Below, one piece after another: positions 39,756-54,254 of a stretch of 64,000 nucleotides of DNA. Under the pieces are notes generated by a model. It ran no database searches, was not told where the DNA came from, and saw nothing but the letters and a program-made list of their open reading frames with translations. The stretch lies in NCBI RefSeq assembly GCF_053078305.1, contig NZ_CP166879.1; one strand, written 5' to 3'. The position numbers and the translations under genes are program-made. Position 1 is the first letter of the stretch. Each line of letters starts with the position of its first letter.

Positions 39756-40135
39756 TCTGCTCCCCCCTCCTCACTGAAGCGCCCGGTCTGGCAGTGTGTG
39801 CAGTACTGCTCCCCATAATAATCGTGGTGACATTGCCTGCAGTGCCAGCTGGCTTTACGTACTACGGGTAAGGCATCCGGGACGAATTGCTGCAGACGTT
39901 TAATCAACCGTATTTCTCTGCGTTCCGGCCTGACATAAGGGCACTCATGACCGTGCTCCGTCAGCCCTTCGTCAGCGTGTTCAAACCAGGGCCGTTCAGT
40001 GTCGTATTGCGGGTGGTATCTGAGTGCACTGCCGCAAAGGTGGCAGGTGTAGCTATCGTAAGGTGCAGTCTGTGCGGTACGGGCACCGGTCAGACGTCCG
40101 TTGCCATCAAGTGCGAGAAAAGATTTTGCGTACAT
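39752..40135 (-). CDS. Cys-rich (zinc-ribbon-like) hypothetical protein, 127 aa
   Basis: CxxC ... CxxC pairs (CHLC, CRQC, CTHC) and WFEH motif. Confidence 0.45.
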   Translation of the reverse strand: MYAKSFLALDGNGRLTGARTAQTAPYDSYTCHLCGSALRYHPQYDTERPWFEHADEGLTEHGHECPYVRPERREIRLIKRLQQFVPDALPVVRKASWHCRQCHHDYYGEQYCTHCQTGRFSEEGGAE

Positions 40136-40507
40136 AGTATATGTTCCTCAGCCGCCAGACGACACGCAGGCAACAGCCGTCCCGGTACGGGCAGCGTGGT
40201 CAGGGTGTGAATGGCGGTTCAGTTAAAATCTGGACTGGAGTTTGGGTAAAGCAGGCTGGTTGCTGTTACAGCACTGTGGTTGTCACACAATGGCCCACTG
40301 ACGTAAAAAACAGTCAGTAAGCAGAGATGGAGATTGGGGGATGTGCTGTATCGGTTGCCGGAAGGAATGGTAAAGAATGTGTCATGGTTAAATCTCCGTA
40401 TGGTTCATACGGAATGGCCACGCCGTAAAAAATGCGCAGAGCCGCTGAAGTGGCCGCCGGAACCGACAGCAAAGATTAGCGCCAGCCCGTACTTGTCGTT
40501 CAGGGGC

Positions 40508-41107
40508 TTACACCAGAGCACATATCCCCGGCAGGGGGCTGTCCAGTCGTGGTCGACCACGGTTACTTTTTTCAGGAAGCCCGCTGCATTTCAGGATGAT
40601 GCCACATTCTTTCTGTTCCCGTTTGGCCAGGTAGCTGATGGCATAGCGTAAATCATTCACCGCTTTGTGATCTGAATAGTGAATGACGTGGTTAATGTTT
40701 ACCGGATAATTTTTATTAAACCGGCACCAGTGGTAGTAACCATTACCATCGGTAACCCGCCTCCAGATATCTCCCATCAATCTGGATACCAGATACGAAC
40801 TCCTGTGGATCTGACCGTTCAGATAGCCCACAAAATGAATGTGAAGCCCTTTACGTTCTGTATATTCCATCACCCAGGCATACCCGACCAGTTTCTCTCC
40901 CACCTCGTTAATCAGTTGCAGCATCTCCGCGCACATGGCGTACCTGCAGGCGCATCCGTAGCTGAATGTGTTTTTTCGGTAAGCAAAATCCATTCTGAAC
41001 GGTAACAGCTTCGAATAGACCCCGAATAATGAATCCAGATGCTGGTTAAAGTGTGTCAGGAGCTGGGGAGCCATTTCGTAAGCGGGATTGGTGTTATAAG
41101 TTTGCAT
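40508..41107 (-). CDS. Inovirus Gp2-like / HUH-motif Rep-like protein, 199 aa
   Basis: HUH-type motif LHIHFVGY and downstream tyrosines (RYAISYLAK); recalled similarity to the Gp2 family proteins common in E. coli islands. Confidence 0.45.
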   Translation of the reverse strand: MQTYNTNPAYEMAPQLLTHFNQHLDSLFGVYSKLLPFRMDFAYRKNTFSYGCACRYAMCAEMLQLINEVGEKLVGYAWVMEYTERKGLHIHFVGYLNGQIHRSSYLVSRLMGDIWRRVTDGNGYYHWCRFNKNYPVNINHVIHYSDHKAVNDLRYAISYLAKREQKECGIILKCSGLPEKSNRGRPRLDSPLPGICALV

Positions 41108-41338
41108 GTTTCTTCCTCGTGTTCTGTAACACAGGAAGAAGCGCTGGCGTAATTTTTGAAGAAAACGTTATCACACGAAGACGTGCAAGTTCACAACTCC
41201 CCGGGCGCCACAGAGAAAGTGGGAGCACACCCGGGTATCAGAACCATACAGAGAACGGCATACGTGACTGTCAATCACAGCGCAGATAATATCTGATATG
41301 ATGTCATTGTGACGACTGTACTTCATCAGAAACATTTA

Positions 41339-41692
41339 TCAGGTAACATATTTCCAGACTGAAGCGGGAACACGATCGTAAAGTTTGTTCATGGTCAGTT
41401 CTGCCAGCCGGTGATCGACCGCAGAGTTGAAGGCTTCCATCTCCGCTGGAGTAAGCTTATAACGCGTGTGGGAAATCACTTTTTCCAGTGTCTCCCGGGA
41501 TGAACAACGACGGAACTGATACAGCCAGTCTTCTTTGGTCTTAACTTCCATTATCCTCTCGTTATTTTGTGCTGTGATTAACGTTAACATAATACCGTCA
41601 GAATAACGTATTCTGACGTCATCCCGGAAGTCTTTCCACTTTCCTGTCTCTCCGGTAATAAAACATTTTAAATGCTGAAGGCATAACGCCAT
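41339..41692 (-). CDS. Hypothetical protein, 117 aa (or 71 aa from MEVKTKEDW)
   Basis: ORF only. Confidence 0.3.
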   Translation of the reverse strand: MALCLQHLKCFITGETGKWKDFRDDVRIRYSDGIMLTLITAQNNERIMEVKTKEDWLYQFRRCSSRETLEKVISHTRYKLTPAEMEAFNSAVDHRLAELTMNKLYDRVPASVWKYVT

Positions 41693-42502
41693 AACCAGAT
41701 ATTACAAGTAACGTGGCGTTACACGTGTTAATGCATTACAGAAGTAACAGAGACAATCAGATAGTAAACAACACTCCGGAAGACTGTTTAATGGCATAGG
41801 TATACTTTTTACGATCACAATATTATATCACTACCAAAATTCATCAGGTGAACTGCAAAAGCAAAACATTAACAGTTCTCCCTCAACCACCGTTATCCAC
41901 ACTATTGACACTGACGATTCATACTCTTATTTAGCCAGAATAGCCTCCACACAACAGGCATTACTTAACAAAGTACATTACAGTCAGTGTGTGTACATGA
42001 CAGATTTATATTCAGGTGTTACGAGATTACATTACAGCAGAGAGAGTTAAGGACAGAGTTACAAGTACTACTACAGAGAATATCTCTGTACAGATACTTC
42101 TATGAGCATATCTTTATGAGAGATCCGTCTACAGGATTGGGTTACAAGGTGGAATTACAGAATTACAGGGTTCATTTACATAACCATACTTCTATAAATA
42201 ATACTAATTAACCTTAATTATTTTTTAATAGTACATGAACTGCCTGTAGCTGTAACGACAAATCACCCAAAATGAAAAATACTGGTTATCACGGTTCAGA
42301 GAACTCGTATAAGTACCTCCCCCCTGAGCAATGCTTCATTTTCTGTGGTTCTATGTGATAGAGTTATGCTGAGTACAGTGGCAGTAACCCTGCTTTCCAC
42401 CACTCAATGACAAAACACACAAAAAATTAATTATATGAATTAACAGTGTTTTTTATGGAATGTTATGCATATCAACCAATATGATTAACAGAAAACTTCA
42501 TC

Positions 42503-43294
42503 ATGACAACACGTATAACTTTCAATATGACCAGTGATGAGACGCTGCGAATTGTGGATGAGTACTGTCATACCCACAAACTTTCGCGCTCTAAGGTAAT
42601 CGACGCATTACTCAGCGCCACAGCACCTGTCCTTAACGATATTAACTGTTATTATCAACTTGCAGGCAAACTGCAGTCACGCTTATTAAATGGAGTGTAT
42701 CAACGGGATCTTCCTCACAAACGCAATGTCGTCAGTGCAGAGAAGTATTGTCTGGAAATCTGGGAAAACAAACTTTTCACCAAAAGAATCCTGGAGTTTG
42801 ACAGTTCAAATGGTGTTCTATACGCGCTGAAACATAAAAGACACTATCGCCGGGATAAGATGATTGGACGGGTTGAAAGCCGGCGTATCAAAGACATTTG
42901 CGAATACCAGATGCAACTGTCCGGGGAGAAGGCAAAATATGCCTGTTTTATTTATATTGAAAGAACAATATACAATCACGATAATCCATCCGGTGAAACA
43001 CCTGTAAAAGCGGCTGTTGGTAATGCAGTCATCCTGCTGGCAAAAGACGTGATATATGACGAGTACTTTTTTGATCTGCGGCAGTCATTTTTCGTGAGCG
43101 TTAAAGATTTGATGGCCTCTGGCGCAAAAGGTATTCCGGAGACACAGAAATATCCGGACGTTTATTGCTGGATCCCGCTTTTCTCCATAAATTCCGGCGT
43201 GGTCATTACCCCGGTCTATAAAATTGATCCCCGGAAACCCGTAACGGTAAAAAAACCGGATCAGATCACTGTTGTTTGTAATTACAGAGAATAA
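42503..43294 (+). CDS. Hypothetical protein, 263 aa, low-GC
   Basis: Long ORF preceded by a very AT-rich region carrying TTACAG-type repeats; no motif recognised. Confidence 0.5.
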   Translation: MTTRITFNMTSDETLRIVDEYCHTHKLSRSKVIDALLSATAPVLNDINCYYQLAGKLQSRLLNGVYQRDLPHKRNVVSAEKYCLEIWENKLFTKRILEFDSSNGVLYALKHKRHYRRDKMIGRVESRRIKDICEYQMQLSGEKAKYACFIYIERTIYNHDNPSGETPVKAAVGNAVILLAKDVIYDEYFFDLRQSFFVSVKDLMASGAKGIPETQKYPDVYCWIPLFSINSGVVITPVYKIDPRKPVTVKKPDQITVVCNYRE

Positions 43295-43676
43295 TTTCAG
43301 TCTTCTCCGTTCACCGCAACAGTGTTTACCTCTGCTTTATCTTCCTTTCAGTAAATACAAACCACAGCTCTGGCAGGTACAGGGCGTGGTTTATCTCCGA
43401 TACTCCCCTGCGCAGTAATAATCATCACTGAAAATACTGATTCCGTCACGGCAAAACGCCATCCCATATTCCGGCAACACAAAATCATCTTCCGTTTATA
43501 CCGGCTTCACTGACAAAACAGACAACCTGTATTGCCTGTACACAACAGTTTCTCTCCTGGCAGGAATATTCCTCAACTTTTTTACGTTTCTCCCCGGTTG
43601 TTATGCCGGTGAAGGTGGTGCGTCGTTTTCATCACCAACGCCGGTTGAGATTAACAACATCCGGAGGAACATTTTC

Positions 43677-43883
43677 ATGAAGACCCCAGTTTCGCTGATG
43701 GATGACCAGATGGTCGACATGGCGTTTATCACTCAACTGACCGGCTTAACCGATAAGTGGTTTTATAAGCTCATCAAAGATGGTGCCTTTCCGGCCCCCA
43801 TCAAACTCGGCCGCAGCTCCCGATGGCTGAAAAGTGAAGTGGAAGCCTGGTTGCAGGCGCGTATTGCACAATCCCGTCCGTAA
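43677..43883 (+). CDS. alpA: AlpA-family prophage transcriptional regulator, 68 aa
   Basis: Characteristic AlpA sequence (LTGLTDKWFYKLIKDGAFPAPIKLGRSSRWLKSEVEAWL). Confidence 0.8.
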   Translation: MKTPVSLMDDQMVDMAFITQLTGLTDKWFYKLIKDGAFPAPIKLGRSSRWLKSEVEAWLQARIAQSRP

Positions 43884-43968
43884 TTACTGACCGTTATCCG
43901 TTCAACCGCAGCGAATACACTATCCGGCCTCCGGAGGCATTCTGCTGCGTGCTAAAGGAGAGAATATT

Positions 43969-44541
43969 ATGCAAAAACTTGAAAACCGGTGTGATCTGCT
44001 GCTAATTCAGCATCAGAAATGGATGGCAAGTGTAACCCGGTTTATTGTCGCTCATGGAATGGGCTCTCCGCATCTTCATGGTTATCACCGCCTGACCCTG
44101 GCTCACTTTTTTCTACCGGAAAAAGGCACCATCATCTCAGTGGCACCACAGGGACTCTATCAGGTCGTCAACCCGGGAACGCCACCGTTCATTCCTGCCA
44201 TTCAGGAAGGGTTAATGACCAGCATTCAGACCCATGAAATCATGCTGCTTACGCATTTTAATCTGGGCGGCGTTTTACTCAGTGAGCTACATCGTCTGGG
44301 CGAAAGCCGGCTGGCAAACAGGCTGAACAGTCTGCTCCGGCGTTTCGAAGATCGCGATCTCTACCACACGCTGATATGGCTGTGCTGGTATGATCTGATG
44401 TGTGCCCACTCCATGCAGCCCTGGACTGAAGAGTTAAAGCATAAATCACACACAGAGCTTGAAAGCTGGGCTGTGGCGCGCAAACGGGAAAAGCGCGAGC
44501 TTGAACTGATGATTGACGAGTATCTGTTATACGCCTGTTGA
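43969..44541 (+). CDS. Hypothetical protein, 190 aa
   Basis: ORF following alpA; no motif recognised. Confidence 0.4.
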   Translation: MQKLENRCDLLLIQHQKWMASVTRFIVAHGMGSPHLHGYHRLTLAHFFLPEKGTIISVAPQGLYQVVNPGTPPFIPAIQEGLMTSIQTHEIMLLTHFNLGGVLLSELHRLGESRLANRLNSLLRRFEDRDLYHTLIWLCWYDLMCAHSMQPWTEELKHKSHTELESWAVARKREKRELELMIDEYLLYAC

Positions 44542-46121
44542 TTCATAACGCTCCCGGGATTCCTTCCTCATCGTTGCACACAACCGGACGGCTATCTGTG
44601 GCAGTCCGCCAAATGACCCTCGCCGCATTTCGTTCTGCTGAAAACGGTACGTAGCCAGTGATACCGGAATTTCCGGAGAGGGTCGCAGGTATATTGCTTC
44701 TGTGCAATTGATGCTTATTTACATTGGATGTGGTTATTTCTGCATCCAATGCTATCGGAAAGAGATCAACCAGCAAATGGTTCCTCAAATCGTATTGATA
44801 TTTACCCGGTGCATTGAGCACCTCCATCTGACACTCCGTTCCCGCATCAAACGGCTGAACCGGAAAACGATTTGCTTTTCACGCTCCGTGGAAATTCACG
44901 AAAAAGTTATTGGGTCATTCATCGAAAAACACATGTTCTGCTGACTGGAGCCATCACCCGGAAATATACGTCAACTGAACAATAACGATTTTTTCTTTAT
45001 GGGATCCCATACACTTTCCCATACCCCTCTGAAAATCAGTCATCAACTCACCAACACATCTTCTGAAATCTGTATTAAACTTATTGCTTAAATAGATGAT
45101 ATAACACATCTTCCATTGCACGGAATCAGCGAAAACTGTCATTCTGGCAATCTTAACAAGATCATTTATCGGTTAATTTTATCAGTAAACAATGGAATAT
45201 CACACTGATAAAATGAACATTCAGGGTAAGATGATAAAATTCACATAAAAAATGCTGAAGATTATTTATTTCATGCAGATAAACGATAAAATACAAGAGA
45301 GTATATTTTTCAGTGTAAGAGTCAATCGTTCATCTCCACTGACGATCACGGTCAGCACATAAACAAAGTGAGTCCTCCTGCTTAGTCATTGCGTATCAGA
45401 AACTAAAAAACAAAAGATTCTGTAAACAACGTGACATTTTTTATGACATTTCCCGAATACAGATATATCAACAAACAGTAGTCAGCGTTGAATTAATAAG
45501 TTTTACAGGGCTATACGTATCTTATAAAACCACTCAACGACCATCATCACCTGACTATTTAGCGGGAGTATCATCTGTATAAATCCCTAAATAATAACAC
45601 CTGTTATTAAAATAAGAATGCTGTCAGCAGTAAATTATTAACATAACACCTGTCCACTCTATCTGTTCTTCTAACTCAACCGGCATCGAAAATATTGCCT
45701 GATTAGTGCATCATAGCCTTCTTTTTTCTTTCCCGACCATCAAAACAAATACAACATTTACAACCACACAATAAAACAAAACTAAAACATAAGATTAACA
45801 ACACCAATCAACAGGAAAACACTGAATATTGAGGTGCCCTGTAACCTGGAGAGCGCATACGGCGCATGTGATCAACACAGCCCATTCTTTTCTGTCATCC
45901 CCCAAATGCAGAACAAACAAGCATAACCTAATGAATATAAAATAAAATATTATTTTTCACCATCATAAAAACATCAATGTATCTTTATATAAAAACACTG
46001 ACAACATGACATAAACATTTAAAAACATAAACAAATCACAACAAAAACATTTGATAATCACTTAGTGACAAAATAAAATTGAGACGATTTTGTTATAAGA
46101 GAGGCGCCATGGAGTGAGATA

Positions 46122-47141
46122 ATGAATAACGAACAGATGCTTATCAAATGCAAAGATCCCCGTAAATGTCGGTTTTATGCTGAATATCTGAATCACAAAT
46201 ACCCCAATGAATTCCCTCAGTTTGCGCCTGACAACCCACAAAACTGTATCAGAAATGTTAATGCGTTTTTAAAAGAAAAGTATTGTAATACTTCAAACAA
46301 TTCTTTTGGTGTTTTTGGTTCGACTGCAGAAGAAGCTCTCAGCAAAGAAATTAATGAACTTGAAATTATTGCAGGGCAGGCAATACTGCCTGAAGAGAGT
46401 TTTCTCTGGTTGAAAACTGACGAACTTGCGACTTTCTTTACCTGGACTACTATTTATCTGTCGAAGGAAGACCATACAAATTTCCCGGAAATAAACCATA
46501 ATTCATCAGGGATAAAAAACGGAATTGAAGTCAGAAAAAGACGAACAGTTACCGATGAAACGTTAAATACTTACAAAAAAAGTAACCTTCCGGATAATCC
46601 ATCATCCCATAACGAACGAATAAAAGTAATCATTTTATATTTTGATTCCTGTCATTCTTTAATTAATAAAAATGCAAAAAGCATATACCTCGAGGAACTC
46701 AGGCAGACGTGGCTTAAAAATAAAAGCGCTTGTCAAAAGTTTAAGTGGCTCCTTCCTGACGATGATGAAATGTGTCAGTGGTTCTGGACAAGACTGAAAC
46801 AAAAACAGGATGAAACACATCCGGTACATAACCCGGTGACCCGGTGGTTCATACCATCTTCAACGAAAGAATATTATCTTGCCTCTCTCGTCGCCTTTGC
46901 TTTATGGAAAGAGGCACCTGATACCATTGAACTGTTCAGAACACGCATAAATCATGCCTGGCATCAAAAAAAACAAAAAGACAAATATCGGAATGATGGT
47001 AAAAAGGCTATTAATATACATATAAGAAGCAATGCGAAAGAAATGCTTGATGAACTCAGAACTGTTTACGGTCTGAGAACAGGAGAGTTTTTTGAAATGC
47101 TGATTACAGAAAAATATCTTGAACACAAGCGAAGGAAGTAA
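46122..47141 (+). CDS. Hypothetical protein, 339 aa, strongly AT-rich (Lys/Asn-rich)
   Basis: Long ORF after a noncoding AT-rich stretch of about 1.1 kb; foreign composition. Confidence 0.5.
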   Translation: MNNEQMLIKCKDPRKCRFYAEYLNHKYPNEFPQFAPDNPQNCIRNVNAFLKEKYCNTSNNSFGVFGSTAEEALSKEINELEIIAGQAILPEESFLWLKTDELATFFTWTTIYLSKEDHTNFPEINHNSSGIKNGIEVRKRRTVTDETLNTYKKSNLPDNPSSHNERIKVIILYFDSCHSLINKNAKSIYLEELRQTWLKNKSACQKFKWLLPDDDEMCQWFWTRLKQKQDETHPVHNPVTRWFIPSSTKEYYLASLVAFALWKEAPDTIELFRTRINHAWHQKKQKDKYRNDGKKAINIHIRSNAKEMLDELRTVYGLRTGEFFEMLITEKYLEHKRRK

Positions 47142-47250
47142 TTCATTACCTGTTACATTCTAAATAATCTCAGACAGATATTATCTCCGTGAATCCCCCG
47201 CCACCTTTCCGGTGCGCGGGGTTTTGTCTTTTTTCACCGGGAATACATGT

Positions 47251-48123
47251 ATGAATCCGTCTGATGCCATTGAGGCAATTGAAAAACCGCTCTCCTCCCT
47301 GCCTTACTCACTTTCCCGTCACATCCTGGAACATCTGCGCAAACTCACCAGCCACGAACCCGTGATTGGCATTATGGGGAAAAGCGGGGCCGGTAAATCC
47401 TCACTCTGTAATGCACTGTTTCAGGGGGAGGTCACCCCGGTCAGTGATGTTCACGCCGGCACCCGGGAAGTGCGGCGCTTCCGTCTGAGTGGCCATGGTC
47501 ACAACATGGTTATCACTGACCTGCCCGGGGTGGGTGAGAGCCGGGACAGGGATGCAGAGTATGAAGCCCTGTACCGTGACATTCTGCCTGAACTTGACCT
47601 GGTGCTGTGGCTGATTAAAGCCGATGACCGTGCCATGTCTGTGGATGAGTATTTCTGGCGACACATCCTGCACCAGGGACATCAGCAGGTGCTGTTTGTG
47701 GTGACACAGGCCGACAAAACGGAGCCCTGCCATGAATGGGATATGGCCGGTATTCAGCCTTCTCCCGCACAGGCACAGAATATTCGCGAAAAAACGGAGG
47801 CGGTATTCCGTCTGTTCCGGCCCGTACATCCGGTTGTGGCCGTATCGGCCCGCACCGGCTGGGAACTGGATACGCTGGTCAGTGCGCTCATGACAGCGCT
47901 TCCCGACCATGCCGCCAGTCCCCTGATGACCCGCCTGCAGGACGAGCTGCGCACGGAATCTGTCCGCTCTCAGGCCCGTGAACAGTTTACCGGTGCGGTG
48001 GACCGGATATTTGACACGGCGGAGAGCGTCTGTGTTGCCTCTGTTGCCCGTACGGTTCTGCGTGCCGTCCGTGACACGGTGGTCTCTGTTGCCCGCGCTG
48101 TATGGAACTGGATTTTCTTCTGA
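47251..48123 (+). CDS. yeeP: YeeP/YkfA/YfjP-family GTPase (50S ribosome-binding GTPase-like), about 290 aa
   Basis: P-loop GKSGAGKSSL, DLPG motif; conserved position upstream of agn43 in CP4-44-like modules. Start set at the first in-frame ATG with a plausible context. Confidence 0.7.
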   Translation: MNPSDAIEAIEKPLSSLPYSLSRHILEHLRKLTSHEPVIGIMGKSGAGKSSLCNALFQGEVTPVSDVHAGTREVRRFRLSGHGHNMVITDLPGVGESRDRDAEYEALYRDILPELDLVLWLIKADDRAMSVDEYFWRHILHQGHQQVLFVVTQADKTEPCHEWDMAGIQPSPAQAQNIREKTEAVFRLFRPVHPVVAVSARTGWELDTLVSALMTALPDHAASPLMTRLQDELRTESVRSQAREQFTGAVDRIFDTAESVCVASVARTVLRAVRDTVVSVARAVWNWIFF

Positions 48124-48241
48124 ACACTCTGCCAGGAAAATGCCTGATTACATTGCGTTAACCAACTGAAAACATGACACAAACACCTCATGCTCCTCCT
48201 GTTTCTCTTGCGTGACCGCCTTGCAATCAATAGAATAAAAC

Positions 48242-48277
48242 GATCGATAAAACAGATATCGATCGTTACTATCGATC
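48242..48277. promoter_or_regulatory. Three closely spaced GATC (Dam) sites in the agn43 upstream region: candidate OxyR/Dam phase-variation switch
   Basis: GATC at 48242, 48261 and 48274 within cgatcgataaaacagatatcgatcgttactatcgatcgtt, about 220 bp upstream of the agn43 ATG. Confidence 0.65.
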
Positions 48278-48494
48278 GTTTATAGTGGTTAATGGTCTGC
48301 GAAAAGGCAGTTGAATCTCTTCATCATGCAGAACGGAATTGCACAAAACGGACTGATACTTCTCTGGCGGATGAGAGAGGGGAAGCATTTATGTCCGGGA
48401 AAAACCACTGTATCTGACCATGCTGTTTTGTACCTGCCGGTATCCACATTTGTGGGTACCGGCTTTTTTATTCACCCTCTGTAAGGAAAAGCTG

Positions 48495-51400
48495 ATGAAA
48501 CGACATCTGAACACCAGCTACAGGCTGGTATGGAATCACATTACGGGCACCCTGGTGGTGGCCTCCGAACTGGCCCGCTCACGGGGAAAACGCGCCGGTG
48601 TGGCGGTTGCTCTGTCTCTTGCTACTGTCACGTCAGTCCCGGCACTGGCTGCTGACACGGTTGTTCAGGCAGGAGAAACCGTGAATGGCGGAACACTGGT
48701 AAACCATGACAACCAGTTTGTATCCGGAACAGCTGATGGCGTGACTGTCAGTACCGGGCTTGAGCTGGGGCCGGACAGTGACGAAAACACCGGCGGGCAA
48801 TGGATAAAAGCGGGTGGCACAGGCAGAAACACCACTGTCACCGCAAATGGTCGTCAGATTGTGCAGGCAGGAGGAACTGCCAGTGATACGGTTATTCGTG
48901 ACGGCGGGGGACAGAGCCTGAACGGGCTGGCGGTGAACACCACGCTGAATAACAGAGGCGAGCAGTGGGTTCATGAGGGCGGGGTTGCCACCGGTACAAT
49001 TATCAACCGCGACGGTTACCAGAGCGTTAAAAGTGGCGGGCTGGCAACAGGAACCATCATCAACACCGGCGCAGAAGGCGGCCCGGATTCTGACAACTCG
49101 TACACGGGTCAGAAGGTCCAGGGAACAGCAGAATCCACCACCATCAACAAAAATGGACGGCAGATTATCTTATTTTCCGGGATAGCCCGTGACACTCTCA
49201 TTTACGCAGGTGGTGACCAGTCGGTACACGGAAGGGCCCTGAATACCACACTGAATGGCGGTTACCAGTATGTGCACAAGGACGGACTTGCGCTGAACAC
49301 GGTAATTAACGAGGGGGGCTGGCAGGTTGTTAAGGCAGGTGGTGCTGTCGGTAACACCACCATAAATCAGAACGGTGAACTGAGAGTACATGCCGGCGGG
49401 GAAGCAACTGCAGTCACCCAGAACACGGGCGGTGCACTGGTTACCAGTACGGCTGCAACCGTTACCGGCATAAACCGCCTGGGAGCATTCTCCGTTGTGG
49501 CGGGTAAGGCTGATAATGTCGTACTGGAAAATGGCGGACGTCTGGATGTGCTGAGCGGACACACAGCCACTAATACCCGTGTGGATGATGGCGGAACGCT
49601 GGATGTCCGCAACGGTGGTGCCGCCACCACCGTATCCATGGGGAATGGCGGTGTACTGCTGGCCGATTCCGGGGCCGCTGTCAGTGGTACCCGGAGCGAC
49701 GGAAAGGCATTCAGTATCGGAGGCGGTCAGGCGGATGCCCTGATGCTGGAAAAAGGCAGTTCCTTCACACTGAACGCCGGTGATACGGCCACGGATACCA
49801 CGGTAAATGGCGGACTGTTCACCGCCAGAGGGGGCTCGCTGGCGGGCACCACCACGCTGAATAACGGTGCCACGCTTACCCTTTCCGGGAAAACGGTGAA
49901 TAACGATACCCTGACCATCCATGAAGGTGATGCACTCCTGCAGGGAGGCGCTCTTACCGGTAACGGCAGGGTGGAAAAATCAGGAAGTGGCACACTCACT
50001 GTCAGCAACACCACACTCATCCAGAAAACCGTCAACCTGAATGAAGGCACGCTGACGCTGAACGACAGTACCGTCACCACGGATGTCATCGCTCAGCGCG
50101 GCACGGCCCTGAAGCTGACCGGCAGCACAGTGCTGAACGGTGCCATTGACCCCACGAATGTCACCCTGACATCCGGTGCCACCTGGAATATCCCCGATAA
50201 CGCCACGGTGCAGTCGGTGGTGGATGACCTCAGCCATGCCGGACAGATTCATTTCACCTCCACCCGCACAGGGAAGTTCGTACCGGCAACCCTGAAAGTG
50301 AAAAACCTGAACGGGCAGAATGGCACCATCAGCCTGCGTGTACGCCCGGATATGGCACAGAACAATGCTGACAGACTGGTCATTGACGGCGGCAGGGCAA
50401 CCGGAAAAACCATCCTGAACATGGTGAACGCCGGCAACAGTGCGTCGGGGCTGGCGACCAGCGGTAAGGGTATTCAGGTGGTGGAAGCCATTAACGGTGC
50501 CACCACGGAGGAAGGGGCCTTTGTCCAGGGGAACAGGCTGCAGGCCGGGGCCTTTAACTACTCCCTCAACCGGGACAGTGATGAGAGCTGGTATCTGCGC
50601 AGTGAAAATGCTTATCGTGCAGAAGTCCCCCTGTATGCCTCCATGCTGACACAGGCAATGGACTATGACCGGATTCTGGCAGGCTCCCGCAGCCATCAGA
50701 CCGGTGTAAACGGTGAAAATAACAGCGTCCGTCTCAGCATTCAGGGCGGCCATCTCGGTCACGATAACAACGGCGGTATTGTCCGTGGGGCCACGCCGGA
50801 AAGCAGCGGCAGCTATGGCTTCGTCCGCCTGGAGGGTGACCTGCTGAGAACAGAGGTTGCCGGTATGTCTCTGACGACAGGGGTGTATGGTGCTGCAGGC
50901 CATTCTTCCGTTGATGTTAAGAATGATGACGGCTCCCGTGCCGGCACGGTCCGGGATGATGCCGGCAGTCTGGGCGGATACCTGAATCTGGTACACAACG
51001 CCTCCGGCCTGTGGGCTGACATTGTGGCCCAGGGAACCCGCCACAGCATGAAAGCGTCATCGGACAATAACGACTTCCGCGCCCGGGGCTGGGGCTGGCT
51101 GGGCTCACTGGAAACCGGTCTGCCCTTCAGTATCACTGACAATCTGATGCTGGAGCCGCAACTGCAGTACACCTGGCAGGGACTCTCCCTGGATGACGGC
51201 CAGGATAACGCCGGTTATGTGAAGTTCGGGCATGGCAGTGCACAACATGTGCGTGCCGGTTTCCGTCTGGGCAGCCACAACGATATGACCTTTGGTGAAG
51301 GCACCTCATCCCGTGACACCCTGCGCGGCAGTGCCAAACACAGTGTGCGTGAACTGCCGGTGAACTGGTGGGTACAGCCTTCTGTTATCCGCACCTTCAG

Positions 51401-51617
51401 CTCCCGGGGGGACATGAGCATGGGTACAGCCGCAGCCGGCAGTAACATGACGTTCTCACCGTCACAGAATGGTACGTCACTGGACCTGCAGGCCGGACTG
51501 GAAGCCCGTGTCCGGGAAAATATCACCCTGGGCGTTCAGGCTGGTTATGTCCACAGCGTCAGCGGCAGCAGCGCTGAAGGCTATAACGGTCAGGCCACGC
51601 TGAATGTGACCTTCTGA
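48495..51617 (+). CDS. flu: Antigen 43 autotransporter adhesin, about 1040 aa
   Basis: N-terminus MKRHLNTSYRLVWNHITGTLVVASELARSRG (extended signal peptide), passenger repeats, C-terminal beta-barrel ending ...NVTF. Confidence 0.85.
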   Translation: MKRHLNTSYRLVWNHITGTLVVASELARSRGKRAGVAVALSLATVTSVPALAADTVVQAGETVNGGTLVNHDNQFVSGTADGVTVSTGLELGPDSDENTGGQWIKAGGTGRNTTVTANGRQIVQAGGTASDTVIRDGGGQSLNGLAVNTTLNNRGEQWVHEGGVATGTIINRDGYQSVKSGGLATGTIINTGAEGGPDSDNSYTGQKVQGTAESTTINKNGRQIILFSGIARDTLIYAGGDQSVHGRALNTTLNGGYQYVHKDGLALNTVINEGGWQVVKAGGAVGNTTINQNGELRVHAGGEATAVTQNTGGALVTSTAATVTGINRLGAFSVVAGKADNVVLENGGRLDVLSGHTATNTRVDDGGTLDVRNGGAATTVSMGNGGVLLADSGAAVSGTRSDGKAFSIGGGQADALMLEKGSSFTLNAGDTATDTTVNGGLFTARGGSLAGTTTLNNGATLTLSGKTVNNDTLTIHEGDALLQGGALTGNGRVEKSGSGTLTVSNTTLIQKTVNLNEGTLTLNDSTVTTDVIAQRGTALKLTGSTVLNGAIDPTNVTLTSGATWNIPDNATVQSVVDDLSHAGQIHFTSTRTGKFVPATLKVKNLNGQNGTISLRVRPDMAQNNADRLVIDGGRATGKTILNMVNAGNSASGLATSGKGIQVVEAINGATTEEGAFVQGNRLQAGAFNYSLNRDSDESWYLRSENAYRAEVPLYASMLTQAMDYDRILAGSRSHQTGVNGENNSVRLSIQGGHLGHDNNGGIVRGATPESSGSYGFVRLEGDLLRTEVAGMSLTTGVYGAAGHSSVDVKNDDGSRAGTVRDDAGSLGGYLNLVHNASGLWADIVAQGTRHSMKASSDNNDFRARGWGWLGSLETGLPFSITDNLMLEPQLQYTWQGLSLDDGQDNAGYVKFGHGSAQHVRAGFRLGSHNDMTFGEGTSSRDTLRGSAKHSVRELPVNWWVQPSVIRTFSSRGDMSMGTAAAGSNMTFSPSQNGTSLDLQAGLEARVRENITLGVQAGYVHSVSGSSAEGYNGQATLNVTF

Positions 51618-51737
51618 CAGAACCATCGCCTCTCTGTGGTCCCGGTCATCATGATCGGGACCCGGACCGGCGCAACGGATATTCAACGCCACATTCGCTG
51701 GCATTAACAATAACATGATATTCATCACGGAGTGACT

Positions 51738-54254
51738 ATGTTACAGATAGTCGGCGCGCTGATCCTGCTGATCGCAGGATTTGCCATTCTTCGCCTTTTG
51801 TTCAGAGCATTAATCAGCACGGCTTCTGCGCTGGCAGGGCTCATATTGCTGTGTCTGTTCGGCCCGGCCTTACTGGCTGGCTATATCACCGAACGCATAA
51901 CCCGGTTGTTCCATATTCGCTGGCTGGCAGGCGTATTTCTGACGATTGCCGGAATGATCATCAGCTTCATGTGGGGACTTGATGGTAAACATATCGCGCT
52001 GGAGGCTCACACCTTTGACTCTGTGAAATTTATTCTGACCACCGCTCTCGCCGGTGGTCTGCTGGCTGTTCCCCTGCAGATCAAAAACATTCAGCAGAAC
52101 GGGATCACACCAGAAGATATCAGCAAGGAAATTAACGGGTATTACTGCTGTTTTTATACTGCCTTTTTCCTTATGGCGTGTTCTGCATGCGCACCATTGA
52201 TCGCGTTACAGTACGATATTTCACCGTCACTGATGTGGTGGGGCGGGTTGTTGTACTGGCTGGCTGCATTAGTGACGCTGCTATGGGCGGCCAGCCAGAT
52301 CCAGGCGCTGAAAAAACTGACCTGTGCCATCAGCCAGACACTGGAAGAACAACCGGTGCTCAACAGTAAATCGTGGCTGACCAGTTTGCAAAACGATTAC
52401 AGCCTTCCTGACTCACTGACGGAGCGCATCTGGCTGACGCTCATTTCACAACGGATTTCCCGGGGAGAGCTGAGGGAATTTGAACTGGCAGACGGAAACT
52501 GGTTACTGAACAATGCCTGGTATGAAAGAAACATGGCAGGGTTTAACGAACAGTTGAAAGAGAACCTGTCATTCACACCTGATGAACTGAAAACGCTCTT
52601 CCGGAACCGCCTGAATTTATCACCGGAAGCGAATGACGATTTTCTCGATCGTTGCCTGGACGGCGGTGACTGGTATCCCTTTTCAGAAGGTCGCCGTTTT
52701 GTATCATTCCATCACGTGGATGAGCTTCGTATCTGTGCCTCCTGCGGGCTGACAGAAGTACATCATGCCCCGGAAAATCATAAGCCGGATCCGGAATGGT
52801 ACTGCTCCTCTCTTTGTCGCGAAACAGAAACACTGTGTCAGGAAATTTATGAACGCCCTTACAACAGCTTTATTTCCGATGCAACGGCGAATGGTCTGAT
52901 TCTCATGAAACTGCCGGAAACCTGGAGTACAAATGAGAAAATGTTTGCTTCCGGAGGGCAGGGACATGGGTTTGCCGCTGAACGGGGAAACCATATTGTC
53001 GACAGAGTCCGTCTGAAAAACGCACGGATCCTCGGTGATAATAATGCCAGAAATGGAGCAGACAGACTGGTCAGCGGAACAGAAATCCAGACGAAATATT
53101 GTTCAACTGCAGCCCGTAGCGTCGGTGCGGCATTCGACGGACAAAACGGACAGTATCGTTACATGGGAAATAATGGCCCCATGCAACTGGAAGTCCCCCG
53201 TGATCAGTATGCCGGCGCTGTTGAAACCATGAGGAATAAGATCCGCGAAGGTAAAGTACCCGGTGTAACCGATCCCGCAGAAGCGTCCCGGCTGATTCGT
53301 CGGGGACATCTGACTTATACTCAGGCCCGTAATATCACCCGGTTCGGGACCATCGAATCGGTCACTTATGATATTGCCGAGGGGTCGGTTGTCAGTCTGG
53401 CGGCCGGAGGGATCAGTTTTGCCCTGACGGCATCGGTCTTCTGGCTCAGCACCGGCGAGCGCGATGCTGCCCTGCAGACAGCTGCTGTCCAGGCAGGAAA
53501 AACCTTCACCCGCACACTGGCTGTCTACGTCACAACCCAGCAACTCCACCGGCTCAGTGTTGTTCAGGGTATGCTGAAGCACATTGATTTTTCGACTGCC
53601 AGCCCGACTGTCCGACTGGCTCTTCAGAAGGGGACCGGTGCAGGAAATATCAGTGCCCTGAACAAAGTGATGAAGGGTACGCTGGTGACATCTCTGGCAC
53701 TGGTAGCTGTCACAACCGGCCCTGACATGATCAAAATGTTGCGGGGACGGATCTCCGGTACGCAGTTCATCAGGAATCTTGCCGTGGCATCTTCCGGTGT
53801 GGCAGGTGGAGCTGTCGGGTCAGTGGCGGGCGGGATACTGTTCAGTCCACTGGGACCATTTGGTGCACTGACAGGGCGTGTGGTTGGCGGTGTTCTGGGG
53901 GGAATGATTGCCTCCGCTGTATCAGGAAAAATTGCCGGAGCGCTGGTTGAAGAAGATCGCGTCAAAATTCTGGCAATGATTCAGGAGCAGGTGACATGGC
54001 TTGCCGGCAGTTTCCTGCTGACCGGACATGAGATTGAAAATCTGAACGAGAATCTGGCCCGTGTTATCGATCAGAATGCTCTGGAGATCATTTTCGCCGC
54101 CGGTATACAACAACGGGCCGCGACCAATATGTTAATCAAACCACTGGTGGTCAGTATCATCAGGCAACGCCCCGTCATGGAATATGATGCATCCCATCTC
54201 GGCAATATGGTTAACCGACTGGAAGAAGCATTACCCCCGGAGTTACCGGCATAA
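51738..54254 (+). CDS. YeeR-like inner-membrane protein (long form, about 838 aa)
   Basis: Several N-terminal TM helices; position after agn43 as in CP4-44-like modules; GGAG 6 nt before the ATG at 51738. Confidence 0.55.
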   Translation: MLQIVGALILLIAGFAILRLLFRALISTASALAGLILLCLFGPALLAGYITERITRLFHIRWLAGVFLTIAGMIISFMWGLDGKHIALEAHTFDSVKFILTTALAGGLLAVPLQIKNIQQNGITPEDISKEINGYYCCFYTAFFLMACSACAPLIALQYDISPSLMWWGGLLYWLAALVTLLWAASQIQALKKLTCAISQTLEEQPVLNSKSWLTSLQNDYSLPDSLTERIWLTLISQRISRGELREFELADGNWLLNNAWYERNMAGFNEQLKENLSFTPDELKTLFRNRLNLSPEANDDFLDRCLDGGDWYPFSEGRRFVSFHHVDELRICASCGLTEVHHAPENHKPDPEWYCSSLCRETETLCQEIYERPYNSFISDATANGLILMKLPETWSTNEKMFASGGQGHGFAAERGNHIVDRVRLKNARILGDNNARNGADRLVSGTEIQTKYCSTAARSVGAAFDGQNGQYRYMGNNGPMQLEVPRDQYAGAVETMRNKIREGKVPGVTDPAEASRLIRRGHLTYTQARNITRFGTIESVTYDIAEGSVVSLAAGGISFALTASVFWLSTGERDAALQTAAVQAGKTFTRTLAVYVTTQQLHRLSVVQGMLKHIDFSTASPTVRLALQKGTGAGNISALNKVMKGTLVTSLALVAVTTGPDMIKMLRGRISGTQFIRNLAVASSGVAGGAVGSVAGGILFSPLGPFGALTGRVVGGVLGGMIASAVSGKIAGALVEEDRVKILAMIQEQVTWLAGSFLLTGHEIENLNENLARVIDQNALEIIFAAGIQQRAATNMLIKPLVVSIIRQRPVMEYDASHLGNMVNRLEEALPPELPA

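Follow-up and report, generated by a model that had tools for sequence, protein, structure and literature searches.

A predicted ribbon-helix-helix regulator gene and its AT-rich spacer as a putative regulatory module of CP4-44-type genomic islands

Classical repressors with a ribbon-helix-helix (RHH) fold, as represented by the CopG/Arc/MetJ superfamily, are proteins of 45-90 residues that consist of the RHH domain alone or of this domain and a short partner-binding tail, and a short palindrome is found in the own promoters of CopG, CopB and Arc. In MatP, the Ter macrodomain protein, a helical bundle is combined with an RHH domain and a coiled coil, and the protein binds the 13-bp palindrome matS. 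Here, we describe a 2.2-kb AT-rich block within 64,000 nucleotides of contig NZ_CP166879.1 (assembly GCF_053078305.1; this whole stretch is referred to as the window), comprising a spacer with no detectable gene and, directly downstream of it, a gene for a 339-residue protein with a predicted C-terminal RHH domain. The block resides in an integrative island of the type represented by CP4-44 and CP4-57 in Escherichia coli, and to our knowledge the regulation of such islands has been described mainly for AlpA and H-NS/Hha.

The locus resembles the classical RHH repressors in the strand-helix-helix pattern of the last ~45 residues of the protein, in the matches of its relatives to the Pfam models PF10723, RHH_1 and MatP_C, and in the short palindrome that, as for CopG, CopB and Arc, lies in the promoter of the gene itself. 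It differs from them in that the RHH domain is placed C-terminal to ~290 residues of a duplicated helical domain. With MatP it shares the order of a helical domain followed by an RHH domain as well as a candidate 13-bp palindromic site, but it ends directly after the second RHH helix and has no C-terminal coiled coil, and its family is carried on a mobile island whereas MatP belongs to the core genome. On balance, we favour the reading that the block forms one regulatory module of a CP4-44/CP4-57-type integrative island, in which an autorepressed RHH regulator would be combined with an H-NS/Hha spacer.

The predicted regulator and its promoter

The 339-residue protein was modelled confidently with AlphaFold2 from a 96-sequence alignment (pLDDT 90.8, pTM 0.85), and the model is all-helical with a C-terminal extended segment and two helices. 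A profile-profile comparison of the two halves of the protein identifies residues 158-229 as an internal duplicate of residues 34-115 (probability 96%, E = 4.6e-9). Both copies end in the motif F-x-W-L...D-E-x-[AC]-x-[FW]-x-W, and four tryptophans of the second copy are conserved (W197, W209, W220 and W222). The first ~290 residues have no significant relative in Pfam, NCBIfam, PHROGs or PADLOC, and in the model this part of the protein consists of duplicated helical repeats without a known structural relative.

While the preliminary description of this DNA, made from the sequence alone, had recognised no motif in the protein, its last ~45 residues follow a strand-helix-helix pattern that superposes on TacA, AmrZ and KacA, and the family profile matches the RHH protein PDB 2kel (E = 0.003). 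The protein itself scores 13.0 bits against PF10723 (RepB-RCR_reg, cut-off 21) over residues 293-331 and 14.8 bits against NCBIfam NF010256 (RepA/CopB, cut-off 87) over C-terminal residues ~292-334. Among the 96 relatives, PF10723 is matched by 20 and RHH_1 by 4 at E ≤ 0.01, and by 43 and 11, respectively, at E ≤ 5. DSSP called no strand on the monomer model, as is expected for an unpaired RHH strand. With a modelled topology that is the one defining the CopG/Arc/MetJ superfamily, the C-terminus is predicted to be an RHH DNA-binding domain, and the protein as modelled has a novel architecture, that of an RHH regulator with a duplicated N-terminal domain of no known fold relative. The ORF does match a well-known superfamily, although over these last ~45 residues only, which runs counter to its earlier portrayal as a protein without a recognisable motif.

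Two closer assignments within the RHH proteins were rejected. The protein is not a PF10723/CopB-type member, since it has 339 residues and is not a single domain of ~85 residues, it scores under the PF10723 cut-off, and its gene is part of a chromosomal island, where it lies next to an IS1 remnant and a GTPase gene and not beside a plasmid rep gene; in other genera a Rep-like YagK/YfjJ gene does lie across the gap from the family gene, but in divergent orientation. MatP recurred among the matches of the family, although never significantly, and MatP membership was rejected because PF06303, the MatP N-terminal model, is not matched by any family member even at E ≤ 5. As this model never matched, the resemblance to MatP is confined to the RHH domain, whose model MatP_C is touched by only 3 of the 96 relatives. 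A database search made to build a MatP profile yielded nothing beyond near-identical MatP sequences of E. coli.

The preliminary description had further taken the gene for an orphan, a view that its relatives do not sustain. A word-indexed search returned close relatives only, from Edwardsiella, Rahnella and Yersinia (48-58% identity), while an exhaustive profile search yielded 491 clusters (at 50% identity) with E ≤ 1e-3, of which 242 reached E ≤ 1e-10, nearly all of them full-length proteins of 290-340 residues from Enterobacterales, Vibrio, Marinobacter and Marinobacterium. Loci were recovered by a genome scan from Morganella, Hafnia, Tenebrionibacter, Siccibacter, Superficieibacter, Vibrio, Marinobacterium and Marinobacter, and the loci recovered overall also include Edwardsiella, Rahnella, Yersinia and Klebsiella. 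Among the E. coli copies, the ORF diverges by 2.0% at codon position 1 and 1.4% at codon position 2 as compared to 7.9% at four-fold sites, and this far lower divergence at the first two positions indicates purifying selection on the protein. Judged by these comparisons, the gene is a member of a large uncharacterised family, whose products RefSeq names either 'hypothetical protein' or 'transcriptional regulator', and a literature search found no paper on it. Other features of the preliminary description were confirmed, namely the richness of the product in Lys (10%) and Asn (8.3%) and the position of the gene upstream of yeeP and agn43. The ORF has a GC content of 36.8%.

No relatives of the family were found in IMG/VR or among GenBank phages, and a phage or satellite origin was rejected on the grounds of this absence from phage and viral collections; an assignment as a defence-system protein was likewise rejected as the protein has no PADLOC match. 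A 96%-identical copy of the gene is present on a 7-kb contig (JAIJJM010000108.1) of a metagenome-assembled genome labelled Collinsella sp., an actinobacterium, and is most likely a binning or contamination artefact and not a case of transfer.

The gene is preceded by a sigma-70-type promoter, located ~45 nt upstream of the start codon, that is the best-scoring promoter-like site between 44500 and 47400 (10 of 12 positions matched), and downstream of the gene there is a strong hairpin with a U-tract that resembles a terminator (-26 kcal/mol, z = -3.6 by RNA folding). With its own promoter, Shine-Dalgarno sequence and intrinsic terminator, the gene would represent a self-contained transcription unit. 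Between the -35 and -10 elements lies the 13-mer AATCACTTAGTGA with the palindrome TCACT-T-AGTGA, which is invariant in E. coli, Edwardsiella and Rahnella even though the DNA on either side can hardly be aligned. Each of the 12 loci compared has a single copy of it in the corresponding place, and the window contains it once. Distant members of the family (~25-33% identity) instead have the palindrome ACTAC-N0-3-GTAGT, which is located 16-62 nt before the start codon and in many cases accompanied by additional CACTAC half-sites. This pattern was found in 9 of 36 loci and nowhere but 16-62 nt upstream of the family gene, against a chance expectation, estimated by us from the information content of the pattern, of ~1.7 matches in ~450 kb. 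The two operator classes have distinct RHH strands, AIN[IT][HY][IV]R in the 13-mer class and ALN[ST]YL[KR] in the ACTAC class.

Autoregulated RHH repressors are typically recognised by a palindrome in their own promoter, and the 13-mer is probably the site bound here. Most likely, an RHH dimer would bind TCACT-T-AGTGA between the -35 and -10 elements, where it would block RNA polymerase and hence repress its own gene. We infer this autorepression from the position of the conserved palindrome in the spacer of the gene's own promoter and of the distant members' palindrome at the same place. A palindrome that differs from the putative operator by 3 mismatches, ATCACGGAGTGAC, is located at 51724-51736 between the agn43 stop codon and the start of the next gene; a match of this level occurs at chance rate and the resemblance may be meaningless.

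The AT-rich spacer

The interval from 44945 to 46121 (1177 nt) is the largest in the window without an ORF of at least 80 residues, and when the threshold is lowered to 60 residues the largest ORF-free interval is 45143-46121. The spacer has a GC content of 33.5% (A 39%, T 27.5%, C 20.6%, G 12.9%) as compared to the window mean of 49.8%, and the four 1-kb windows with the lowest GC are located inside it or straddle its right edge into the 339-residue ORF. A run of GC below 0.42 from 44861 to 46860 is the longest such run in the window. The spacer has 32 A/T tracts of at least 4 nt, where shuffles of matched composition give 20.3 ± 3.7. Its plus strand is rich in C and poor in G, with GC skew down to -0.39. 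The composition and the largest ORF-free interval both agree with the preliminary description, which had called the stretch noncoding, very A/T-rich and rich in A-tracts and had placed it at 45000-46120. Of these two edges the right one holds (46121), but the left one needs correction, since the spacer starts at the end of an IS1 remnant (~44945-44957). RefSeq labels this remnant 'IS1 family transposase, incomplete' at the identical place in all inspected E. coli copies, and its terminal repeat ends in ...GCCATCACC, which we take to be the IS1 end. A minus-strand ORF of 94 residues (44543-44827; RefSeq hypothetical protein WP_000453440.1, no Pfam match) overlaps the remnant and may be a spurious call.

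The spacer encodes nothing detectable. Public annotation has no feature in it in the 40 E. coli records listed (of 245 carriers), and none is annotated in the six E. coli records whose annotation was read. An Rfam scan of 40000-52000 at E ≤ 1 gave no match in the spacer, the only hit being the IS102/isrC RNA further downstream. Sliding RNA-fold scans of the spacer were unremarkable (mean z-score -0.2 to -0.3), with a few windows at z = -2 to -2.8. It contains 17 ORFs of at least 20 residues, of which a single one (45795-45920, minus strand, 41 codons) is intact in all six E. coli variants; this ORF has a TTG start and no Shine-Dalgarno sequence, and its pairwise identity of 88.8% equals that of its surroundings. 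No pseudogene remnants were detected by tblastn of the neighbours YfjI, YagK and AlpA against the spacer, and a search for iterons and repeats found nothing significant, only short matches in two or three copies. An inverted repeat at 45172-45218 (GTTAATTTTATCAGT / ACTGATAAAATGAAC; 15 nt, 93% complementary, 17-nt loop), near which there is a direct repeat of TGATAAAAT, is no more conserved among the E. coli copies than its surroundings. In a horizontally acquired island, an AT-rich spacer as such is nothing unusual.

Among the E. coli copies, the spacer diverges by 10%, as compared to 8-9% at four-fold sites of the flanking genes, and indels are concentrated at 45500-45800. The promoter-proximal 80 nt diverge by only 4.3% against the 10% of the rest. 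Likewise, similarity to the equivalent gaps of Edwardsiella and Rahnella can be aligned in the last ~120 nt only. The full-length spacer is nevertheless kept in 243 of the 245 E. coli genomes carrying it, and a gene-free gap of low GC (0.30-0.40; 0.3-1.7 kb) is found at the equivalent position in every related element. The length of this gap ranges from 1.7 kb on a Klebsiella plasmid, 1.6 kb in Rahnella and ~1.4-1.6 kb in Hafnia and relatives, through ~1.1 kb in Edwardsiella, 0.9 kb in Morganella and 1.1 and 0.7 kb in two other enterobacteria, down to 0.3-0.6 kb in Vibrio and Marinobacter. The GC content of the family gene in these elements is also below that of its neighbours. The low GC is not merely a donor signature, because the adjacent island genes have 50-60% GC and the trough recurs in other genera. 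The spacer thus behaves as DNA constrained in composition but not in sequence, and the retention of its presence and composition without its sequence fits a composition-dependent role such as H-NS binding.

RNA-seq of enteroaggregative E. coli (EAEC) 042 shows 2-6 fold higher expression of the region-2 genes, which belong to a paralogous island, in hns mutants and in hha-null mutants (PMC6480617, Table 1), and hha2 is located in the island copy of this strain that carries the spacer and the 339-residue gene (PMC9431211). The spacer resembles H-NS/Hha-silenced DNA in its low GC (33.5% vs 50% in the host), its abundance of A-tracts, its location in an island with its own hha paralogue, and the H-NS/Hha repression of the paralogous 042 genes (PMC6480617). 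By composition, island context and presence in 245 of 5426 E. coli genomes it also has the character of xenogeneic DNA. It differs from such DNA in that the GC trough is local, conserved in position across genera and flanked by island genes of 50-60% GC, and in that the high-affinity H-NS motif is not enriched. Silencing of the spacer by H-NS/Hha is plausible on these sequence features.

Island context across strains and genera

The region matches CP4-44-type genomic islands of E. coli, with the best match in strain GPEC1176 (100% identity over 44900-47200). The preliminary description had regarded the DNA as foreign, with which this horizontally acquired, CP4-44-like island and its Hha paralogue are in line. 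The spacer and the 339-residue gene are present as a unit in 245 of the 5426 complete E. coli genomes (85-100% identity), including EAEC 042, 55989 and O104:H4.

In the loci with full annotation, the family gene opens a conserved rightward backbone that continues with a GTPase and/or WYL gene, variable cargo, and DUF932, antirestriction, RadC, DUF987, CbeA/CbtA and DUF4942 genes; a large intergenic region separates it from the AlpA and YagK/YfjJ genes that it faces. This full synteny applies to Edwardsiella, Rahnella, two other enterobacterial genomes and plasmids of Klebsiella and E. coli, while for the genome-scan loci of Morganella, Vibrio and Marinobacter synteny refers to an upstream YagK- or AlpA-like ORF only. 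Among the records of the plasmid collection, one from E. coli has a minimal version, consisting of AlpA, Gp2-like gene, a 593-bp gap, the family gene, DUF932, RadC, YeeU, CbtA and DUF4942.

EAEC 042 has a second island (NC_017626, 2331505-2334218) in which a yfjI-family gene on the opposite strand and a different AT-rich gap of 1.2 kb (GC 0.38) take the place of the segment ~44550-47161, and homology resumes exactly at window position 47162. This suggests that interchangeable cassettes occupy this position. Five related loci carry, upstream of AlpA and YagK, variable cargo of the anti-phage defence type, with BREX brxL, an OLD-TOPRIM ATPase with a UvrD helicase (apparently Gabija-like), dynamin-like GTPases and a DNA methylase, and the islands of these related loci appear to be defence carriers.

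The features of the window are compiled in Table 1. The start of the agn43 ORF, as listed mechanically, falls within the IS102/isrC match. Additionally, the window contains a second long AT-rich and ORF-poor stretch at 41501-42670 (GC below 0.42 over 1170 nt, ORF-free at 41693-42502), placed between the hha paralogue and the 263-residue ORF.

Table 1. Features of the island segment around the AT-rich spacer and the 339-residue gene (window coordinates).
Feature	Position	Strand	Basis or remarks
YagK/YfjJ (inovirus Gp2-like) gene	40511-41107		Accompanied by zinc-ribbon genes
hha paralogue	41339-41551	minus	Island's own Hha
263-residue ORF	42503-43294		No Pfam match
AlpA-family helix-turn-helix gene	43677-43883		Followed by 190-residue ORF, IS1 remnant, spacer and 339-residue gene
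IS1 remnant (insB 3' end and terminal inverted repeat)	44798-44957 (about)	plus	Left boundary of spacer
AT-rich spacer, no detectable gene or RNA	44945-46050	none	~1.1 kb, 33-34% GC
Sigma-70-type promoter of 339-residue gene	46051-46079	plus	-35 TTGATA (46051-46056), 17-nt spacer, -10 TAAAAT (46074-46079)
Putative operator AATCACTTAGTGA, 13 nt	46056-46068	none	Palindrome TCACT-T-AGTGA (46058-46068) between -35 and -10
Shine-Dalgarno GGAG	46111-46114	plus	7 nt before ATG at 46122; read from sequence
339-residue gene, predicted RHH transcriptional regulator	46122-47141	plus	ORF, annotation, purifying selection, 491 clusters, AlphaFold2
Helical repeat 1	46221-46466 (residues 34-115)	plus	Ends in F-x-W-L...D-E-x-A-x-F-x-W
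Helical repeat 2	46593-46808 (residues 158-229)	plus	Internal duplicate of repeat 1
Predicted C-terminal RHH domain	47001-47135 (residues 294-338)	plus	Strand KKAINIHIRSN (294-302), helices 303-316 and 320-338
Intrinsic-terminator-like hairpin CCCCGCCACC...GGUGCGCGGGG, then UUUUGUCUUUUUU	47196-47234	plus	Terminator scan; between 339-residue and GTPase genes
YeeP/YkfA/YfjP-like GTPase gene	47251-48123	plus	Pfam MMR_HSR1, E = 5e-15; RefSeq 'GTPase family protein'
IS102/isrC RNA	48240-48476		Rfam, 74.7 bits, E = 3e-11; agn43 upstream region
agn43	48420-51617		Followed by yeeR-like gene and irmA
Further downstream backbone			DUF905, DUF932, antirestriction, RadC, CbeA/CbtA

Competing explanations and implications

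Its place as the first gene of the rightward backbone makes the 339-residue gene the best candidate for the regulator of that module. The spacer would most likely serve as an H-NS platform that, together with the island's own Hha, keeps the promoter of the regulator quiet and insulates it from the leftward genes. Several observations weigh against such a module. The protein falls under every curated Pfam and NCBIfam threshold. In the spacer, the A-tracts show no helical phasing of 10-11 bp, and sites similar to the high-affinity H-NS motif (TCGATAAATT) number 3 against an expectation of 2.9 ± 1.6; the left end is an IS1 scar, and the sequence diverges at about the synonymous, neutral rate. Further copies of the operator are at chance level in the window (16 observed vs 16 expected at ≤3 mismatches), so the sequence gives no evidence of control beyond the 339-residue gene itself, and the terminator parts this gene from that of the GTPase. 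Finally, the module is swapped out in the second island of EAEC 042 and is thus dispensable for an island.

The neutral divergence, together with the lack of H-NS motif enrichment and of A-tract phasing, is fitted equally well by a non-functional origin, in which the spacer is the scar of an old IS1-mediated rearrangement that has drifted to an AT-rich mutational equilibrium beside an ordinary regulator gene. Mutation in bacteria is AT-biased, the IS1 remnant abuts the spacer in every inspected E. coli copy, the indels are clustered, and no conserved ORFs, RNAs or repeats were found in it; the spacer may simply be neutral DNA. However, bacterial genomes normally delete junk DNA, and here the full length is retained in nearly all E. 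coli carriers, while elements free of IS1 (those of Edwardsiella, Rahnella, Morganella, the Klebsiella plasmid and others) keep an AT-rich gap of 0.6-1.7 kb at the same position. We regard this explanation as possible but rather unlikely. A much lower probability is given to the proposal that the spacer contains an origin from which the excised island is replicated or transferred and that the RHH protein is a CopB/CopG-like regulator of copy number or replication, not of the backbone. AT-rich DNA is typical of origins, and the gap in the Edwardsiella, Rahnella, Morganella, Vibrio and plasmid copies separates the divergent YagK/YfjJ and family genes. YagK/YfjJ proteins, which are rolling-circle Rep-like, weakly match REP_ORF2-G2P, and the nearest sequence relatives of the RHH domain are the replication regulators PF10723 (RepB) and NF010256 (RepA/CopB). 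Such likeness is generic among RHH domains, however, and the spacer lacks iterons and significant repeats, is not conserved in sequence between genera outside the promoter-proximal 120 nt, and in the window lies 4 kb from the YagK/YfjJ gene with hha, alpA and others in between; we consider this very improbable. The least probable of the readings weighed here is a transcribed and functional spacer that acts as a long 5' leader or contains an unannotated small RNA or very small proteins. The C-rich and G-poor plus strand is as in unstructured Rho-loading leaders, the 41-codon ORF is intact in six of six variants, and some windows fold at z = -2 to -2.8, but there is no Rfam match, the mean folding z is ~-0.2, and the rate of evolution is neutral. 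The intact ORF, moreover, shows no excess conservation and starts with TTG without a Shine-Dalgarno sequence, and a good promoter with a conserved operator is located only ~45 nt from the start codon.

The module reading that we favour may be extended to the family as a whole, which would then be the master switch of CP4-44/CP4-57 islands. The rightward 'establishment' module would be kept off by the RHH domain until the duplicated N-terminal domain sensed a trigger, for instance phage infection, arrival in a new host or excision, and relieved the repression; the spacer would add an H-NS/Hha layer. We hold this extension to be doubtful. Its closest counterpart, by functional analogy only, is Stl of the Staphylococcus aureus pathogenicity islands (SaPIs), along with cI-like repressors. 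As with these, the gene is the first of a rightward module opposite alpA and rep-like genes across a large divergent region, and the protein joins a predicted DNA-binding domain to a far larger one that might serve to receive a signal. There is no relationship in sequence or fold, as Stl and cI use a helix-turn-helix, and unlike SaPI-type elements the island lacks packaging genes; nor does the family occur in the phage and viral collections searched. We know of no inducer, helper or derepression mechanism for the family. If true, the family would be a master switch functionally analogous to Stl but built from unrelated parts.

Islands of the CP4-44/CP4-57 type count among the most frequent accessory elements in E. 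coli and its relatives, where they carry the Ag43 adhesin, toxin-antitoxin pairs, antirestriction genes and anti-phage defence cargo. Our analysis defines a family whose ~290-residue N-terminal part lies outside the Pfam, NCBIfam, PHROG and PADLOC models. Further, the supposed orphan is a core, conserved and probably autoregulated predicted RHH regulator that heads a widespread island backbone. A conserved, apparently autoregulated, predicted DNA-binding protein in this position, together with a recognisable putative operator, represents a concrete and testable entry point to the regulation of these islands.

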